Below are positions 10,290 through 16,980 of a DNA stretch of 64,000 nt, in pieces (position 1 is the first letter of the stretch; every line of letters begins with the position of its first letter). Location: assembly GCA_963713975.1 (NCBI GenBank), contig OY970218.1, positions 768,001 through 832,000 on the forward strand, given 5' to 3'. Made by a program: the position numbers and the translations under genes. The notes under the pieces are model-generated. The model was not told the origin of the DNA, searched no databases, and saw nothing but the letters and a program-made list of their open reading frames with translations. Source of the stretch: an uncultured Chloroflexia bacterium (GTDB lineage: Bacteria; Chloroflexota; Limnocylindria; Limnocylindrales; CSP1-4).

Positions 10290-10502
10290 CGGCGTGATCC
10301 GCCGCCCGCAGGCCAATGCATCGTTTCCTGACGCCCGCACGGGCCGCCCGGCCCCCCGGTCGCGCCATTGGCAGGACCTTCCCCGTCCTGATAGCCCTTA
10401 TCCGGAGGATCGCCGGAACCTAGGCTGACGCCATCGCCGTGCTTCATGTGGGCCACGTCACTGCACCGGCCCGCGAAGTGCGGCCTTCCCTTGGAGGGCT
10501 CG

Positions 10503-11036
10503 ATGGCCATGGGACTGGTGTCGGCGCTGCCGCGCATTGAGGATCAGGACCTGATCGACCGGATCATCGGCGACCAGGCCGGACGACCCGGCGCCCTGCT
10601 GGGCATCCTCGAGAAGCTCCAGGAGAACCACCGCCACAAGTACCTTCCAATGGAGACGCTGGAGTACGTGGCCGCGCGCACGGGCGTCCCGCAGTCGCAG
10701 GTCTACGGCGTCGCGACGTTCTATGCGCTGTTCAACCTCGACCCCCAGGGCACGCACACCGTGGCCATCTGCCGGGGGACGGCCTGCCACACGCGCGGAT
10801 CGCGGGCACTGCTCGAGCGCGTGAAGCTCCAGCTCGGCCTGCAGGAGACCCGCGACGGCGCGGACAAGCTGACGCTCACCACGCCCGACCGGCGATTCAC
10901 GATCCGCACCGTGGCCTGCTTCGGACAGTGCGCGCTCGCCCCCGTGGTCGAGGTCGACCACGCGATCCGCGGGCACGTGAAGGAGCAGGCGCTGATGCGC
11001 GAGGTGGACGGCCTGCGCAAGGAGAGCGCGCGATGA
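10503..11036 (+). CDS. hoxE: Bidirectional hydrogenase diaphorase subunit HoxE (NuoE-like, 2Fe-2S)
   Basis: VYGVATFYALF, ICRGTACH, VACFGQCALAP. Confidence 0.88.
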   Translation: MAMGLVSALPRIEDQDLIDRIIGDQAGRPGALLGILEKLQENHRHKYLPMETLEYVAARTGVPQSQVYGVATFYALFNLDPQGTHTVAICRGTACHTRGSRALLERVKLQLGLQETRDGADKLTLTTPDRRFTIRTVACFGQCALAPVVEVDHAIRGHVKEQALMREVDGLRKESAR

Positions 11037-14000
11037 GGATCCAGGACATCGCCGCATTCGCGACCGTGCGCGAGGCGGGTCTCGCGAAGCTCCTGCCCGA
11101 CAGGCCCCGGATCGCCGTCGGCATGGGCACCTGCGGCTCGGGCAACGGCGCCGAGGGCGTCTACAACGCCTTCTCGTCCGAGATCGACGCCCGCGGGCTT
11201 GCCGTGCAGCTGGCGCCGGTCGGCTGCTTCGGGTTCTGCGCCGAGGAGCCGCTCGTCAACGTCTGGGTGCCCGGCCGCCCCCTGCTGATCCTGCACCGCG
11301 TCCAGCCCAACCACGTGGACGCGATCCTGAACAGCCTGGGCCATGGCGAACCGCCGCCCGCCGAGATCGTGCTGTGCAAGATCGAGGAATGGGACCACCT
11401 CACCGGCCACATCAAGTACGGCTCGGGCTACCCGGACGTGCCCGCCTGGAACGAGGTCCCGTTCTTCGACGGCCAAGTCAAGATCGTCCTGCGGAACTGC
11501 GGCCTCATCAACCCCGACGACATCGAGGAGTACATCGCGATCGGCGGGTACCAGGCCCTGTACAAGGTGCTCATCGACCAGAACCCCGCCGGCGTGATCG
11601 AGCAGGTCAAGGCGGCGAAGCTGCGTGGCCGTGGCGGTGCCGGCTACCTGACCGGGAACAAGTGGGACTTCCTGTACAAGGCACCGGGCCCCGAGAAGTA
11701 CCTGATCTGCAATGCGGATGAGGGCGACCCGGGCGCCTACATGAATCGCAACGAGATCGAGTCGGACCCCCATGCCCTGCTCGAGGGGATGCTCATCGCC
11801 GGGTACGTCACCGGCGCGCCAAAGGGGATCATCTACGTCCGCGCCGAGTATCCGCTCGCGGTCATGCGTCTCGAGCGCGCGATCGAGCAGGCGCGTGCCT
11901 ACGGCGTCCTGGGCGTGAACGTGCTCGGGCGCGGCTTCGACTTCGAGATCGAGACGGTCGAGGGCGCCGGCGCCTTCGTGTGCGGTGAGGAGACGGCGCT
12001 GATCGCCTCGCTCGAGGGCCACTCCGGCCGACCGCGCTCACGCCCGCCGTTCCCGGCCCAGAAGGGCCTCTATGGCAAGCCGACCAACATCAACAACGTC
12101 GAGACCTGGTACAACATCGCGCCGATCGTCTCCAAGGGGCCGGCCTGGTTCACCGAGACCGGCAGCGCCAAGAGCGCCGGGACGAAGGTCTTCTCCCTGG
12201 TCGGCAAGGTGCGCAGCACCGGGCTCGTCGAGATGCCGCTCGGCACGCCGCTCGCGAAGTTCATCTACGACATCGGCGGTGGCAGCAGCGACGGCCGCGA
12301 GATCAAGGCCGTGCAGACGGGCGGACCGTCCGGCGGCTGCATCCCGGCGGACATGCTGGACACGCCGGTCGACTACGAGACGCTCGCCCAGCTCGGCTCG
12401 ATCATGGGCTCCGGCGGCATGGTGGTCATGGACGCCGACAACTGCATGGTCGACGTCGCCCGCTACTTCATCGAGTTCACGCACTCGGAGAGCTGCGGCA
12501 AGTGCGTCCCGTGCCGCGTGGGCCTCGACAAGGCGCTGCGCATGCTCAACCGGTTCACGGACGGCAGCGCCAGCACGGACGACCTCGCGACCCTCGACGA
12601 GCTGTGCCGCATGGTCCGTGACACGTCGCTGTGCGGACTGGGCCAGAGCGCGCCGAACCCCGTGCTGACGAGTCTGCGCCACTTCCGCCACGAGTTCGAG
12701 GACCACATCGTGGCCAAGCGCTGCCGGGCCGGCGTGTGCGAGGACCTGGCGCTCTCGCCGTGCGAGAACTCGTGCCCGTTGCACATGAACATCCCGCGCT
12801 TCCTGCAGCTGTACAAGGAGGGTCGCCTGGAGGACGCGTTCCTGTCGGTGATCCTCGACAACCCGCTACCGGCCTCGACCGGTCGCGTATGCCAGCACCC
12901 CTGCGACAACCGCTGCCGCCGGGCCGCCCTGGACGAGTCCGTGAACATGCGCGACGTCCATCGCCTGATCGCCGACGAGGTCCTGCTGTCCGATCGGTTC
13001 GACACGGTCGTCGAGCGGGTCCGCGAGCGGAGGCTCGAGCCCACCGGCCGCGAGGTCGCGATCGTGGGTTCCGGGCCGACCGGGCTGGCCTGCGCCTACT
13101 ACCTGGCGCTCTTCGGCCACAGCGTGGTGGTGTACGACTCGCGTCCGGCGGCGGGCGGCATGCTCCGCTATGCGCTCCCCGAGTACCGGCTCCCCAAGGC
13201 GGTGCTCGACAAGGAGGTCGAGCTGATCGAGCGCATGGGCGTCCGCTTCGAGTTCAACGTCAGCGTCGGCGACGACATCACCCTCAACGACCTGGCCCAC
13301 CAGTACGACGCGGTGTTCCTCGCGATCGGCACCTGGAAGGAGGCGTGGGTCTACCTGCCCGGCACCGAGCTCACGGGCGTGATCCCCGCCCTGCCGTTCC
13401 TGGAGGCAGTATCGCGCGACGAGGAGGTCCCGGTCAGGAAGCAGGTCGTGGTCATCGGCGGCGGCAACGCCGCCATCGACTCCGCGCGCACGGCGCGCCG
13501 GCTGGGTGCCGACGTGACGGTGGTCTACCGCCGCGAGCGCAAGGACATGCCGGCGATCCCCGAGGAGATCGAGGCGGCCGAGCACGAGGGTGTGACCATC
13601 ACCTACCTCGCCGCCCCGCACCGCATCGTCGGCGACGGGAACGGCCAGGTGCGCGCACTCGAGGCCGTCAGGACCCGGCTCGGCGAGTTCGACACGTCGG
13701 GCCGGCGCCGGCCGGTACTCACCGACGAGGTCATCCGCATCGAGTGCGACACCGTGATCCTCGCCGTGGGCGAGAAGGTCGATCCCGACTTCTGCCGGGC
13801 CTCGGGCCTGACCCTGAAGGAGGAGGGCACCATCGAGGTGGACCGCTACACGCTCGAGACGAGCCGGGAGCGGTTCTACGCCGGTGGCGACCTGATCAGC
13901 GGCTCGTCGAACGTCTCGAACGCCATGGGCTACGGCAAGAAGGCGGCACGGAATATCGACAAGAAGCTGATGGGCCAGAAGCGCTTCGCGAGCCTGTTCC

Positions 14001-14188
14001 CGGAGTTCAACTACCAGATGGAGCCGCCGGAGAAGCCCAGTGAGCTTGGCCGCCACGTGCCCGGCGAGACGGCCCCGGCAGAACGGATGGGCACCTACGC
14101 GGAGGTCTCACTCGGCCTCACGACGATGGCGGCAGCCGCTGAGACATCCCGCTGCCTGCGCTGCGACGTCCGAAGCGTCGAGAGCTAG
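11033..14188 (+). CDS. hoxF: HoxF/NuoF-like diaphorase fused to a GltD/NfnB-like Fe-S/FAD/NADPH oxidoreductase module
   Basis: Thioredoxin-like 2Fe-2S N-terminus, GRGGAG, NADEGDPG, CGEETAL, ESCGKCVPCR/CGLG; then PCENSCP, GRVCQHPC...C, GSGPTG, GGGNAA..YRR, RCLRCD. Confidence 0.88.
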   Translation: MRIQDIAAFATVREAGLAKLLPDRPRIAVGMGTCGSGNGAEGVYNAFSSEIDARGLAVQLAPVGCFGFCAEEPLVNVWVPGRPLLILHRVQPNHVDAILNSLGHGEPPPAEIVLCKIEEWDHLTGHIKYGSGYPDVPAWNEVPFFDGQVKIVLRNCGLINPDDIEEYIAIGGYQALYKVLIDQNPAGVIEQVKAAKLRGRGGAGYLTGNKWDFLYKAPGPEKYLICNADEGDPGAYMNRNEIESDPHALLEGMLIAGYVTGAPKGIIYVRAEYPLAVMRLERAIEQARAYGVLGVNVLGRGFDFEIETVEGAGAFVCGEETALIASLEGHSGRPRSRPPFPAQKGLYGKPTNINNVETWYNIAPIVSKGPAWFTETGSAKSAGTKVFSLVGKVRSTGLVEMPLGTPLAKFIYDIGGGSSDGREIKAVQTGGPSGGCIPADMLDTPVDYETLAQLGSIMGSGGMVVMDADNCMVDVARYFIEFTHSESCGKCVPCRVGLDKALRMLNRFTDGSASTDDLATLDELCRMVRDTSLCGLGQSAPNPVLTSLRHFRHEFEDHIVAKRCRAGVCEDLALSPCENSCPLHMNIPRFLQLYKEGRLEDAFLSVILDNPLPASTGRVCQHPCDNRCRRAALDESVNMRDVHRLIADEVLLSDRFDTVVERVRERRLEPTGREVAIVGSGPTGLACAYYLALFGHSVVVYDSRPAAGGMLRYALPEYRLPKAVLDKEVELIERMGVRFEFNVSVGDDITLNDLAHQYDAVFLAIGTWKEAWVYLPGTELTGVIPALPFLEAVSRDEEVPVRKQVVVIGGGNAAIDSARTARRLGADVTVVYRRERKDMPAIPEEIEAAEHEGVTITYLAAPHRIVGDGNGQVRALEAVRTRLGEFDTSGRRRPVLTDEVIRIECDTVILAVGEKVDPDFCRASGLTLKEEGTIEVDRYTLETSRERFYAGGDLISGSSNVSNAMGYGKKAARNIDKKLMGQKRFASLFPEFNYQMEPPEKPSELGRHVPGETAPAERMGTYAEVSLGLTTMAAAAETSRCLRCDVRSVES

Positions 14189-14199
14189 GGAGGATCGCC

Positions 14200-14907
14200 T
14201 TGACCGAGAAGGTGAAGGTCCGCATCGACGGAGAGGTGATCGCGGCCATGCCCGGCCAGACGATCCTCGAGGTCGCGCGAGCCAACAACAAGTACATCCC
14301 CGCCCTCTGCTACATGGAGGGCCTGAGCACTGTCGGTGCCTGCCGGCTGTGCATGGTCGAGGTGTCCGGCGTGGCGCGCCTGCTGCCTGCCTGTACCACG
14401 CCGGTGCAGGAGGGCCAGGCGGTCGTGACCACCTCGGCACAGATCGAGGACTACCGGCGGATCACGCTCGAGCTGCTGTTCGCCGAGCGCAATCACGTGT
14501 GCGCCGTGTGTGTCTCTTCGGGTCACTGCGAGCTGCAGACGCTGGCCCAGGACCACGGGGTCACGCACGTCCGCTACCCGTACAGCTGTCCGCGGCTCCC
14601 CGTCGACACGACGCACCCGCGCTACGTGCTCGACCACAACCGCTGCGTGCTCTGCTCCCGTTGCGTCCGGACCTGCGCCGAGATCGAGGGTGCTCACGTG
14701 TGGGACGTGGCCGGGCGCGGCATCGGCTCCCGCCTCGTCTCCGAGCTCCAGCGGCCATGGGGCGAGGCGACGACCTGCACCAGCTGCGGCAAGTGCGTCC
14801 AGGCCTGCCCGACAGGTGCGATGGCCGAGAAGGGCTGGGGGGTCGAGGAGATGACCAAGCAGCGGACCGTGGTCAGCCAGCTGACCACGATGCGTGAGGG
14901 CTCGTGA
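14200..14907 (+). CDS. hoxU: Bidirectional hydrogenase Fe-S subunit HoxU
   Basis: GGAGG RBS and TTG start; GACRLC, ERNHVCAVC..GHCELQ, CVLCSRCVRTC, CTSCGKCVQACP. Confidence 0.93.
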   Translation: MTEKVKVRIDGEVIAAMPGQTILEVARANNKYIPALCYMEGLSTVGACRLCMVEVSGVARLLPACTTPVQEGQAVVTTSAQIEDYRRITLELLFAERNHVCAVCVSSGHCELQTLAQDHGVTHVRYPYSCPRLPVDTTHPRYVLDHNRCVLCSRCVRTCAEIEGAHVWDVAGRGIGSRLVSELQRPWGEATTCTSCGKCVQACPTGAMAEKGWGVEEMTKQRTVVSQLTTMREGS

Positions 14908-15437
14908 TGGACAAGCCCAGGATCGGGACCTGCTGGCTCGACGGCTGCTCGGGCTGCCACATGTCACTGCTCGACATCGACGAGGCGATCATCGGCGTGC
15001 TGCGCAAGGCGGACATCGTGTTCGGCCCGCTGGTCGATGCGCAGGAGTGGCCGGAAGGTGTCGACGTGGCCATCGTGGAGGGCGCGGTCAGCAGCCAGGA
15101 CGACCTCAGGCTCGTCCAGACGGTTCGGGCGCGGAGCAAGGTCGTGGTGGCGCTGGGCGACTGTGCAGTGACGGGCAACGTGCCGTCGATGCGCAACGGC
15201 ATCTCGACCCGCAGGCTGCTCGAGCGCATCTACGTCGAGGGAGCCGACGAGACCCCAGGCGTGCCGACGGACGGCGTGCCCGGGCTGCTCAAGCAGGCCG
15301 AGCCGCTGCGCTCGACGATCAAGGTCGATGTCCACGTCCCGGGCTGTCCCCCCAAGCCCAACGCGATCCTCATGGTGCTGAGCGAGCTGCTCGAGGGCCG
15401 CGAACCTGACCTTGGATCCAAGGTCAGGTTCGGGTAG
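14907..15437 (+). CDS. hoxY: [NiFe] hydrogenase small subunit HoxY
   Basis: WLDGCSGCHMS, VEGA, GDCA..GNV, PGCPP; short single-cluster form. Confidence 0.93.
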   Translation: MDKPRIGTCWLDGCSGCHMSLLDIDEAIIGVLRKADIVFGPLVDAQEWPEGVDVAIVEGAVSSQDDLRLVQTVRARSKVVVALGDCAVTGNVPSMRNGISTRRLLERIYVEGADETPGVPTDGVPGLLKQAEPLRSTIKVDVHVPGCPPKPNAILMVLSELLEGREPDLGSKVRFG

Positions 15438-15558
15438 GCGTGACGTGGCTGCCCGGAGGACGACACCGAAGACGACGGGGCGCGGGCGACGCGCCCCCGA
15501 GGGCCTCGAGCCCGTCGCTGCCCCGGCGGGGCAACCGGCCGAGGCCAGGAGACCATCG

Positions 15559-16980
15559 ATGAACACGGTCACCATCCCCCACGTGTCGCGCATCGAGGGG
15601 CACGCCAAGATCACGATCAGGCTCGACGATTCGGGCCAGGTGACCGACACGCAGTTCCACGTGACTCAGGTTCGCGGGTTCGAGAAGTTCATCGAGGGCC
15701 GGCCGTACTACGAGATGCCGTCGATCACGGCGCGCATCTGTGGCATCTGCCCGGTCAGCCACCTGCTCGCCTCGTCCAAGGCCTGTGACGAGATCATGGC
15801 CGTGCGCATCCCGGCACCCGCGGCCAAGCTGCGTGAGCTCATCCACTGCGCGCAGTTCGTGCAGTCGCACGCGCTGTCCTTCTTCCACCTCTCGGCGCCG
15901 GACCTGCTGCTGGGCATGGACTTCGATCCGGCACGGCGCAACGTCGCGGGACTGCTCGAGCAGCACCCCGACGCCCTGCGCGACGGGATCGCGTTGCGCA
16001 AGTTCGGCCAGCAGGTGATCGAGCGCCTGGGCAAGGAGCGCGTGCACCCCTCGTGGACCGTGCCGGGCGGCGTGAACGCCCCGCTCGACCCGCACGCACG
16101 AGAGAAGACCCTGGCGGAGCTGCCGGCGGCCATGGCGATCGTGCGTCGCACCCTGGCGCTCTGGAAGGCGACGCTCGATGGCTTCCCGGACGAGATCGAG
16201 TCCTTCTCCAACATCCCCACGATGTACTGCGGCCTCGTTGGGCCGGACGGCTCGCTGCGGCTCTACGACGGCAACCTGCGCTTCGTGGCACCCGACGGCG
16301 CAATCCTCGCCGACCAGGTGAGGCCCGCCGACTACGCGACCTGGATCGGCGAGGCGAGCCTCTCGGACTCCTACCTCAAGGCGCCGTACTACAAGCCGGT
16401 GGGCTACCCCGATGGCGTCTATCGGGTCGGGCCGCTCGCCCGCCTGAACGTCGCCGACCGCTGCGGCACGCCGGAGGCCGATGCCGAGCTCGCGGAATAC
16501 CGGGAGCGCCTGGGCCGCATCGTCCAGAGTGGCTTCCACTACCACTACGCACGCCTGATCGAGGCGCTGTACGGCCTGGAGCGCATGGCCGAGCTGCTCG
16601 ATGACCCGGCCATCCTGGCGACCAAGGTCCGTGCCCACGCAGGTGTCAACGAGCTCGAGGGGACCGGGATCATCGAGGCCCCGCGTGGCACGCTCATCCA
16701 CCACTACAAGGTGAACGAGCATGGCGCCATGACCTGGGCCAACCTGATCGTGGCGACCGGCCACAACAACCTCGCGATGGGCCAGGGCATCCTCCAGGTG
16801 GCCAGGCGGTTCGTCGATGGCAACCGGATCCAGGAGGGAGCGCTCAACCGCGTCTCCGCGCTCGTCCGCGCCTATGATCCGTGCCTCAGCTGCTCCACCC
16901 ACGTCCTGGGCATGGCGGCGGTGGTGCTCCAGCTGCGCGGGCCGAACGGTGAGCTGCTGGACGAGGTGGCGAACGGGTAG
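15559..16980 (+). CDS. hoxH: Group 3d [NiFe] hydrogenase large subunit HoxH
   Basis: RIEGH, L1 RICGICPVSH, EAPRG, L2 DPCLSCSTH followed by a cleavable C-terminal extension. Confidence 0.95.
   Translation: MNTVTIPHVSRIEGHAKITIRLDDSGQVTDTQFHVTQVRGFEKFIEGRPYYEMPSITARICGICPVSHLLASSKACDEIMAVRIPAPAAKLRELIHCAQFVQSHALSFFHLSAPDLLLGMDFDPARRNVAGLLEQHPDALRDGIALRKFGQQVIERLGKERVHPSWTVPGGVNAPLDPHAREKTLAELPAAMAIVRRTLALWKATLDGFPDEIESFSNIPTMYCGLVGPDGSLRLYDGNLRFVAPDGAILADQVRPADYATWIGEASLSDSYLKAPYYKPVGYPDGVYRVGPLARLNVADRCGTPEADAELAEYRERLGRIVQSGFHYHYARLIEALYGLERMAELLDDPAILATKVRAHAGVNELEGTGIIEAPRGTLIHHYKVNEHGAMTWANLIVATGHNNLAMGQGILQVARRFVDGNRIQEGALNRVSALVRAYDPCLSCSTHVLGMAAVVLQLRGPNGELLDEVANG

Follow-up and report, generated by a model that had tools for sequence, protein, structure and literature searches.

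We analyzed a 64,000-nucleotide (nt) stretch of DNA, called the window below, from contig OY970218.1 of an uncultured Chloroflexia bacterium of the order Limnocylindrales (assembly GCA_963713975.1, positions 768,001 to 832,000 of the forward strand). It carries a predicted [NiFe] hydrogenase operon, hoxE-hoxF-hoxU-hoxY-hoxH, in which hoxF runs on in frame into a GltD-like module. We refer to this fused gene, which consists of a BfuB-type core and a putative NADPH module, as hoxF::gltD. It occupies positions 11033 to 14188 on the plus strand, and its start codon, the ATG at 11033, shares the letters ATGA with the stop of hoxE. A first-pass annotation, made from the DNA letters, had described a single open reading frame (ORF) of 1,051 amino acids (aa), and translation of the window bore this out, giving 1,051 codons with no internal stop, followed by the stop codon. 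The motifs that it had listed (DNCMVD, HIVAKRCRAGVC, GSGPTG, GGGNAA, and YRR) were all found in the translated protein. The fusion itself, and the proposed order of a NuoF core and then a GltD-type module, were recovered in a Pfam domain search, which placed Complex1_51K (Nuo51, binding flavin mononucleotide [FMN]) at residues 192 to 363 (1.2e-41), SLBB at 387 to 435, NADH_4Fe-4S (the NuoF iron-sulfur region) at 474 to 558 (3.2e-32), Fer4_20 (dihydropyrimidine dehydrogenase domain II [DPD_II]) at 561 to 650 (5.7e-19), and Pyr_redox_2 at 674 to 966 (9.2e-34); Pyr_redox was also matched.

The fusion was confirmed to be a genuine gene and not a misassembly. A scan of a one-genome-per-species collection matched at least 711 stretches, at least 697 of which encode a relative, and the best 80 of these at least 697 were taken as related loci. 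At these 80 loci, all in other assemblies, the relative was a single frame of at least 900 aa in 69 cases, was cut by a contig end in 7, and was interrupted, without runs of N, in 4. The 69 full-length relatives with an uninterrupted frame are the basis of the conservation counts given below. In a word-indexed search, the best 120 clusters were 83 to 100% identical to the fused protein and 1,049 to 1,056 aa long, with one exception of 989 aa, and the homologs of 1,049 to 1,056 aa aligned from residue 1. The stop or misassembly near position 12750 that the first-pass annotation had allowed for was therefore not borne out, the window being free of stops and 69 of the 80 related loci having one open frame. 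A selenocysteine-containing or otherwise recoded gene was ruled out because hoxF::gltD has no in-frame stop, and nothing suggestive of a mobile-element origin was seen among the window genes scanned. None of the sequencing runs searched contained the window's own sequence (best word share, 0.14). Short contigs of relatives from such runs, 85 to 99% alike, included RNA-library contigs on both halves of the gene and, among the records listed, none spanning the junction at position 12749; they were not used as evidence of transcription or of the junction.

We also modeled the fused protein with AlphaFold2 from an alignment of 57 sequences, obtaining a mean predicted local distance difference test (pLDDT) score of 89.4 and a predicted template modeling (TM) score of 0.79. 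Foldseek superimposed the N-terminal half on 9bov_B, the NfnB chain of C. saccharolyticus (root mean square deviation [rmsd], 1.6; TM score, 0.97 of target), and the C-terminal half on 9bov_A and 5jca_L (rmsd, 1.7; TM score of target, 0.83 for 5jca_L).

The NuoF-type FMN/NADH core (residues ~140 to 572; positions 11450 to 12748, plus strand) was delimited by Pfam and by alignment to 7t2r_B, the HydB (BfuB) chain of the electron-bifurcating hydrogenase NiFe-HydABCSL of Acetomicrobium mobile. This chain was the best match to residues 25 to 572 among solved structures (4e-184), followed by C. saccharolyticus NfnB (9bov_B; 9e-181) and T. sibiricus NfnB (9n5u_B; 8e-180); StnB of S. ovata and [FeFe] HydB chains matched as well. 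The core was far less similar to NuoF of complex I and to the beta subunits of formate dehydrogenase (~1e-100). We placed the ligands of the B1 and B2 sites using the alignment to 7t2r_B and the ligand list of PMC8880783. The predicted ligands of the [4Fe-4S] cluster B1 are C488, C491, C494, and C534, all invariant in the 69 relatives. Those of the B2/Zn site are C471, T509, H558, C564, and C569, again invariant except for T509, which was conserved in 65 of 69. T509 takes the place of Cys476 in A. mobile HydB, a B2 position given as a "semi-conserved Cys or Thr" in that ligand list (PMC8880783).

At the FMN site, GDPGAYMNR (residues 231 to 239) aligns with GDPGAFMDR of 7t2r_B, and GDPGA-x-M is invariant in all 69 relatives. 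The counterparts of both A202 and M204 of A. mobile BfuB, which are reported to be absent from nonbifurcating relatives (PMC9304861), sit inside this motif. A third residue listed in that survey, "F182," was not placed, as position 182 of 7t2r_B is a Lys by count (PMC9304861). The core also contains GGPSGG, which is on the motif list of a preprint on the Synechocystis enzyme (10.64898/2026.06.25.734504).

The N-terminal domain (residues ~25 to 110; positions 11105 to 11362, plus strand) corresponds by alignment and fold to the thioredoxin-like domain that carries the "B5" site of HydB. It aligns to residues 6 to 90 of 7t2r_B, as well as to 9bov_B and 9n5u_B, and was modeled with a pLDDT of 90 to 96. 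The first-pass annotation had called it a thioredoxin-like 2Fe-2S domain. Fold and alignment recognize the domain, but Pfam gave no match to it, and the candidate cluster or metal-ion site has only three conserved Cys residues (C34, C65, and C69, each kept in 66 to 67 of the 69 relatives), with Gly30 in the place of the first Cys of the pair in A. mobile HydB. NfnB of C. saccharolyticus and of T. sibiricus likewise aligns with a single Cys at the N-terminal pair, and the T. sibiricus site, with the same Cys pattern, is described as holding Zn (PMC12018979).

The alignments of the core to the nine best solved BfuB chains all end at residues 570 to 577. Beyond this point, the solved chains continue into a ferredoxin-like domain of ~55 residues with clusters B3 and B4, whereas the fused protein has Fer4_20 and Pyr_redox_2, beginning 8 residues past the last B2 ligand (C569 to C577). 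On these alignments, the GltD module stands in for the ferredoxin-like B3/B4 domain found in HydB and is not merely appended to the core, a point that goes beyond the first-pass annotation.

The cassette that takes this position (residues 573 to 1051) has three parts, all encoded on the plus strand. Pfam and alignments identify a DPD_II/Fer4_20 domain with two predicted [4Fe-4S] clusters (residues 573 to 650; positions 12749 to 12982), and Pfam, alignment, and Foldseek identify flavin adenine dinucleotide (FAD)-binding and NADPH-type Rossmann domains (residues 651 to 980; positions 12983 to 13972). A tail containing RC1041-L-R-C1044 (residues 981 to 1051; positions 13973 to 14185) was defined by alignments. 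Residues 575 to 1047 matched the GltD insert of C. saccharolyticus NfnA (9bov_A) at 4.5e-115, and the cassette matched T. sibiricus NfnA (9n5u_A) at 1.7e-102, the P. furiosus NfnI large subunit (5jca_L) at 6e-93, and S. ovata StnC (8oh5_C) at 3e-92. Alignment with NfnL, StnC, and NfnA yielded eight predicted ligands of two [4Fe-4S] clusters: C577, C581, C620, C624, C628, H643, C1041, and C1044. The DPD_II Cys residues and His643 were invariant in the 69 relatives, and C1041 and C1044 were present in 68. In assigning Cys residues to one cluster or the other, we assume the arrangement of the dihydropyrimidine dehydrogenase and NfnL structures.

The FAD motif GSGPTG (residues 679 to 684), R719, GGGNAA (809 to 814), and YRR (832 to 834), whose Arg pair presumably binds the 2'-phosphate of NADPH, were likewise invariant in all 69. 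The proposal in the first-pass annotation that the second nicotinamide site is of the NADPH type was thus supported by motif likeness, in that GGGNAA and YRR are invariant and match the NADPH-using modules of NfnL, StnC, and NfnA; the site looks to be of that type. The tail aligns with 9bov_A up to residue 567 and with 8oh5_C up to residue 568, its alignment to NfnL residues 12 to 48 is weak (i-E, 9.9), and residues 981 to 1040 were modeled with a pLDDT of 85 to 94. The cassette is accordingly predicted to be circularly permuted as in StnC and NfnA, with the CxxC pair in the C-terminal tail, whereas that of NfnL is N-terminal. It is also predicted to be complete, as both [4Fe-4S] sites, the FAD site, and a Rossmann fold of the NADPH type can be recognized.

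Two residues of the cassette bear on the cluster next to the flavin and on the flavin itself. His643 (positions 12959 to 12961) aligns to Lys170 of StnC and to a Glu in NfnL, at the non-Cys position of the FAD-proximal cluster. Lys170 is described as a cluster ligand that is strictly conserved among StnC sequences (PMC10482914). The His was found in 69 of 69 family members, whereas StnC and NfnA have Lys and NfnL has Glu; in nine remoter full-length NuoF-GltD fusions (32 to 52% identity), this position is His in one, Lys in five, and Glu in three. His643 may tune the potential of the FAD-proximal cluster to a new electron partner. The other residue, R719, is the counterpart of NfnL R201, so an equivalent of the Arg at the bifurcating FAD of NfnL is present. 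However, StnC is reported to keep the same Arg although its FAD does not bifurcate (PMC10482914), and R719 is therefore not diagnostic of a bifurcating FAD and decides nothing on this point.

The other four genes of the operon, all on the plus strand, fit a hoxE-F-U-Y-H operon setting, both in their domain matches and in their conservation as neighbors: hoxE, hoxU, hoxY, and hoxH were found in the same order at 65 of the 80 related loci, and each of the remaining 15 is truncated by a contig edge on the side where genes are missing. The BfuC-like hoxE, or hydC (positions 10446 to 11036; 196 aa; PF01257, 2.9e-37), encodes a helical N-terminal part and then a thioredoxin-like [2Fe-2S] domain, whose predicted ligands (C109, C114, C158, and C162) are invariant in 63 aligned sequences. 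It scored 125.5 bits against the NCBIfam HoxE model, under the cutoff of 224. The product of the BfuA-like hoxU, or short hydA (positions 14200 to 14907; 235 aa), identified by Pfam and the NCBIfam HoxU equivalog model (344.8 bits, over the cutoff of 333), has motifs for a [2Fe-2S] cluster, a His-ligated [4Fe-4S] cluster, and two [4Fe-4S] clusters. It aligns to residues 3 to 209 of the 692 in 7t2r_A (2.5e-70) and so has no counterpart of the last 480 residues of A. mobile HydA.

The small subunit gene hoxY, or hydS (positions 14904 to 15437; 177 aa; Oxidored_q6, 6.8e-31), encodes a Cys pattern consistent with one [4Fe-4S] cluster, the number reported for A. mobile HydS (PMC8880783). The large subunit gene hoxH, or hydL (positions 15559 to 16980; 473 aa), was identified in a PDB search and encodes RICGICPVSH and DPCLSCSTH, with the CxxC pairs that bind [NiFe]. 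Its product matched A. mobile HydL (7t2r_D; 2.4e-162, 544.6 bits) ahead of the NAD-reducing hydrogenase of H. thermoluteolus (5xf9_D; 3.9e-119, 402 bits), an Mvh subunit (5odc_F; 5.7e-107, 362 bits), and a sulfhydrogenase (9nez_D; ~1e-32, 114 bits). Its start is most likely the ATG at 15559, just behind an AGGAGA; starting at the TTG at 15412, as in the mechanical ORF, adds 49 Arg/Pro-rich residues without homology. A 121-nt spacer (positions 15438 to 15558) separates hoxY from this likely start. The corresponding gap in relatives, judged from the coordinates of high-scoring segment pairs, varies between roughly a dozen and several hundred nt and is mostly 15 to 150 nt at Chloroflexota-labeled loci. 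The five genes are predicted to encode a soluble Hox-like, or NiFe-Bfu-like (HydABCSL), [NiFe] hydrogenase. The rest of the window holds ordinary oxidoreductases and housekeeping genes, and no hyp genes and no protease were found in it.

We looked at how the fused gene is distributed. The metagenome-assembled genomes behind the 80 related loci are labeled Chloroflexota/Candidatus Limnocylindrales, Vicinamibacteria, Bryobacterales/Solibacteraceae, and, in one case, Thermoleophilia. Among 61 genomes of the same order, with an ortholog defined as a full-length match of at least 78% identity, the gene was present in 4 of the 31 genomes of the window's own family, its own genome included, and in none of the 30 of the sister family. 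In a fifth genome of the window's family (G012), the match is split over two adjoining frames. The distribution of the fused gene is thus patchy. At four Vicinamibacteria-labeled (Acidobacteriota) loci (L004, L012, L022, and L069), the gene was 84 to 88% identical to the Chloroflexota ones among L001 to L026, and Bryobacterales fused genes were only 71 to 75% identical to the Chloroflexota ones. The high identity between the Chloroflexota- and Vicinamibacteria-labeled genes, 83 to 88% over all such pairs, suggests either recent horizontal transfer across phyla or errors in binning. One genome from the window's own genus (G036) has no ortholog and instead shows a 51% match to residues 22 to 718 within a 1,513-aa frame (C1:2527203-2529242), possibly another fusion architecture of the BfuB core.

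The window lies on a single 3.62-Mb contig, and marker genes put the completeness of the genome at 92%. It has four [NiFe] large-subunit genes in addition to a NuoD-like one: a group-1-like gene, a group-3b-like gene, that of the fused operon, and that of a second hoxEFUYH operon (C1:2663090-2668031, plus strand; hit-guided ORFs). The second HoxF shares 50% identity with the fused core, keeps GDPGAFMDR and the C..H-x5-C-x4-C B2 site, and ends ten residues beyond; the second HoxH is 56% identical to that of the window. For the fused enzyme, this tail-less operon amounts to a natural "minus-cassette" control. Because the cell has this paralog and a group-3b-like hydrogenase, the fused enzyme is not simply its sole NAD- or NADP-linked hydrogenase. 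The genome also contains a HypD gene, a heme-copper oxidase, PntB, and three matches of the pyruvate:ferredoxin oxidoreductase (PFOR) type; RuBisCO was not found in this 92% complete genome. The sole HycI-type endopeptidase found, in a genome with four large subunits, adjoins the group-1-like hydrogenase at 2.706 Mb, and none was found near either Hox-type operon. Both HoxH proteins have a C-terminal extension of ~24 residues after DPCLSCSTH, which aligns with deposited A. mobile HydL.

Other loci of the genome touch on the same parts. The group-3b-like (sulfhydrogenase-like) large subunit is encoded at C1:2307253-2312707, and a PFOR-type gene lies ~3.6 kb away on the opposite strand. On the minus strand at C1:1107350-1114950, genes for NuoK- and NuoL-like membrane subunits are immediately preceded by a NuoE-like gene, a NuoF gene, and a gene whose product combines [2Fe-2S], a GltD cassette, and two 4Fe-4S motifs; this cluster may specify a complex-I-like enzyme with an NADPH port. 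Nearly all 61 sampled genomes of the order had a match of 37 to 41% to the GltD half, in many cases next to a NuoF-like one.

In the solved Bfu enzymes, electrons from a third substrate reach B1 and FMN, a hydride passes to NAD+, and a low-potential electron travels through the mobile [2Fe-2S] domain of the C subunit to B3/B4 and on to ferredoxin. In one structure, ferredoxin is described as bound between the mobile C-subunit domain and the B3/B4 domain (PMC12018979), and deletion of B3/B4 is reported to have abolished bifurcation in T. kivui HydABC (cited in PMC11829005). Since B3/B4 is needed and ferredoxin docks beside it, replacing this domain should change the low-potential partner, and a cassette at the B3/B4 position should receive the low-potential electrons and feed NADP+. 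We therefore propose, with a probability of about 45%, that NADP+ takes the role of ferredoxin as the low-potential partner, in the reaction 2 H2 + NAD+ + NADP+ <-> NADH + NADPH + 2 H+.

The electron route that we infer, with its coupling and its NADPH specificity, would be as follows. H2 would be split at the [NiFe] site, and the electrons would pass through the clusters of HoxY and HoxU to the [4Fe-4S] cluster B1 and FMN. The high-potential share would leave FMN as a hydride to NAD+, while the low-potential share would exit through the mobile [2Fe-2S] domain of HoxE. This domain would hand its electrons to the two [4Fe-4S] clusters of the cassette, which would stand in for B3/B4 and ferredoxin, and the cassette FAD would gather two such electrons to reduce NADP+. 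The enzyme would then be a reversible, ferredoxin-independent bifurcating and confurcating hydrogenase.

Several findings favor this proposal. The HoxF core, HoxU, and HoxH are all best matched by the bifurcating A. mobile enzyme. The marks of a bifurcating BfuB, GDPGA-x-M and the C/T/H/C/C set of B2, are kept in 69 of 69 relatives (T509 in 65), and the cassette begins exactly where solved HydB and NfnB chains enter the ferredoxin-like domain. The completeness of the cassette also counts in its favor, as does the presence of the tail-less paralog and the group-3b-like hydrogenase in the genome. The energetics would also be suitable. Physiological potentials are listed as -280 mV for NAD, -380 mV for NADP, and -414 mV for H2 at 1 atm (PMC9304861, Table 1). 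By our own arithmetic from these values, the H2 potential falls between the NADH and NADPH couples at H2 pressures of ~3e-5 to 0.07 atm, and the coupled turnover would be at equilibrium near 1.4e-3 atm. Over this range H2 would thus be the mid-potential donor, as the proposed wiring requires.

Other points weigh against it. All members of this enzyme family are known from genes alone, and the NADPH specificity is read from motif likeness. The gap between NADH and NADPH, ~100 mV, is far below the one that separates NADH from ferredoxin, and coupling would accordingly bring a modest gain. The HoxEFUYH enzyme of Synechocystis, whose HoxF lacks B3/B4 altogether, is reported to bifurcate with ferredoxin all the same, with a proposed docking site near the clusters of HoxE and the HoxF N terminus (10.64898/2026.06.25.734504); ferredoxin could therefore have remained a partner of the fused enzyme. 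The three PFOR-type matches in the genome are a possible source of reduced ferredoxin, just three Cys residues are conserved at the N-terminal site, and PntB and the group-3b-like hydrogenase already connect the NAD and NADP pools of the cell.

We weighed the proposal against four alternatives. In the one that we take most seriously, although we consider it unlikely, the enzyme is an uncoupled two-port hydrogenase, in which H2 electrons reach FMN (and NAD+) or FAD (and NADP+) independently, with soluble transhydrogenase as a side activity. The GltD-like subunit of group 3b hydrogenases serves a [NiFe] site without bifurcation. A group-3b-like large subunit occurs in this same genome, both nicotinamide sites of the fused protein look intact, and the potential gap between the NAD and NADP couples is small (PMC9304861). 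Against this, the 69 relatives have strictly kept the Bfu features (AxM, B2, the thioredoxin-like domain at the HoxF N terminus, and the [2Fe-2S] domain of HoxE), the cassette is joined at the low-potential exit rather than to the HoxU chain, and an ungated short circuit from NADPH to NAD+ would deplete the NADPH pool. We regard as more doubtful again a hydrogenase that still uses ferredoxin, with four substrates or two bifurcation centers, the cassette being an extra NADPH port or an NfnL-like bifurcating flavin. The Synechocystis precedent speaks for it (10.64898/2026.06.25.734504), as do the PFOR-type genes, the invariance of R719, and a possible second "FAD" center proposed for the [FeFe] sub-type I BfuB (Zheng and Huang 2024, PMC11406978). 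Its weight is reduced by the retention of that Arg in StnC, whose FAD is reported to be nonbifurcating (PMC10482914), by the three-Cys N-terminal site, and by an operon without an NfnS-like high-potential partner for the FAD.

Two further alternatives carry little probability. It is very improbable that the C-terminal module is not linked to NADP(H) and instead serves another acceptor, such as a disulfide or a sulfur compound, or is mainly structural, given that both Rossmann motifs and YRR are invariant, that the cluster ligands are kept in 68 to 69 of the 69 relatives, and that the pLDDT is high throughout. An assembly artifact or a decaying gene, two genes having been fused by a sequencing error, is next to inconceivable. 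The four interrupted loci and the split match in G012 would fit it, but the independent loci with one open frame, the uniform length of the top 120 clusters bar one, and the stop-free window do not.

To our knowledge, all Bfu-type bifurcating enzymes studied to date use ferredoxin as the low-potential partner. The fused enzyme may represent the first kind of bifurcating or confurcating hydrogenase that needs no ferredoxin, dividing H2 electrons between NAD+ and NADP+ or merging NADH and NADPH into H2, and widespread in oxygen-respiring soil Chloroflexota and Acidobacteriota; we advance this tentatively, as somewhat less than an even chance. If it is right, the Bfu mechanism is not restricted to ferredoxin-based anaerobic metabolism, and H2 at 0.003 to 7% could directly set the NADPH/NADH balance in soil bacteria. 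If the two nicotinamide sites are coupled, the enzyme would carry out a new kind of bifurcation and tie H2 directly to NADPH in soils; if they are uncoupled, it would be a compact H2-driven enzyme for NAD(P)H regeneration, of interest for biocatalysis. Either way, the swap provides a clean natural experiment on the role of the B3/B4 domain and a defined five-gene target, and it is spread over many species in phyla that are abundant in soils and wetlands (at least 697 relatives). Full-text literature searches turned up neither a description nor any biochemistry of the [NiFe] form of the fusion, although the supplements of PMC11406978 and PMC9304861 may bear on it; PMC4758237 and PMC6018796 treat GltD or group 3 hydrogenases in general terms only. 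The Bfu survey, as described in its text, selected by an architecture that included the 4Fe-4S ferredoxin-type domain and excluded metagenomic data (PMC9304861), and it would therefore have missed the NuoF-GltD [NiFe] family.

We compared the fused enzyme with the systems that it most resembles. With P. furiosus NfnSL (5JCA), the cassette shares the FAD/NADPH/two-cluster fold, YRR, and the equivalent of Arg201. NfnL has an N-terminal CxxC, a Glu ligand, a bifurcating FAD, and NfnS as its partner, whereas the cassette has a C-terminal CxxC and His643, and the fused operon contains no NfnS homolog. The NfnABC/StnABC enzymes (9BOV, 9N5U, and 8OH5) match both halves, the core resembling NfnB/StnB (~1e-180) and the cassette the GltD insert of NfnA/StnC. 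In those enzymes, however, the cassette lies within BfuA, NADPH is the mid-potential donor, and BfuB retains B3/B4; here the cassette is on BfuB, and HoxU is uninterrupted by any GltD cassette.

The HoxEFUYH enzyme of Synechocystis PCC 6803, a member of group 3d, has the same gene set and order and shares the AFM-type FMN-site motif and GGPSG. Cyanobacterial HoxF has no C-terminal domain past the core, in contrast to the 1,051 aa and second Rossmann site of the fused protein. The Synechocystis enzyme is reported to bifurcate and confurcate with ferredoxin and NAD(H), and NADPH is reported to work in neither direction (preprint 10.64898/2026.06.25.734504). The label of group 3d HoxF given in the first-pass annotation stands as far as the gene set E, F, U, Y, H and the CxxC pairs of HoxH are concerned, but a NuoF-size HoxF with one nicotinamide site is lacking and all five subunits are closest to those of bifurcating A. 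mobile NiFe-HydABCSL. Of the Bfu family features, the FMN-site residues, B1, B2, and the [2Fe-2S] domain of BfuC are present, and the ferredoxin-like B3/B4 domain, defined for BfuB by two CX2CX2CX3CP motifs (PMC9304861), is absent.

By alignment, the enzyme encoded here is closer to electron-bifurcating NiFe-HydABCSL of A. mobile (7T2R/7T30; PMC8880783) than to any other solved enzyme, the classical NAD-reducing hydrogenase included. The two share the five-subunit set, the FMN-site motif, the B2 ligands, and a one-cluster small subunit. They differ in that A. mobile HydB has the B3/B4 domain where the fused protein has its 479-residue FAD/NADPH cassette, in that HydA has 692 aa and HoxU 235, and in that A. 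mobile is a strict anaerobe, whereas the host described here is a soil Chloroflexota bacterium with a heme-copper oxidase. The swap as such has a precedent in the [FeFe] group A3 "sub-type I" BfuB, described as having DPD_II and a C-terminal FAD/NAD(P)-binding domain in place of B3/B4 and as belonging to an enzyme that was never characterized (PMC11406978). The same study takes the two clusters to be missing from the group 3d [NiFe] enzymes of its phylum, which it regards as probably nonbifurcating (PMC11406978). The sub-type I BfuB is partnered by [FeFe] HydA, whereas the fused protein is partnered by [NiFe] HoxYH together with HoxU. The B3/B4 swap was thus already known in [FeFe] BfuB, and what appears to be new here is the same swap on a Bfu/Hox-type [NiFe] hydrogenase.

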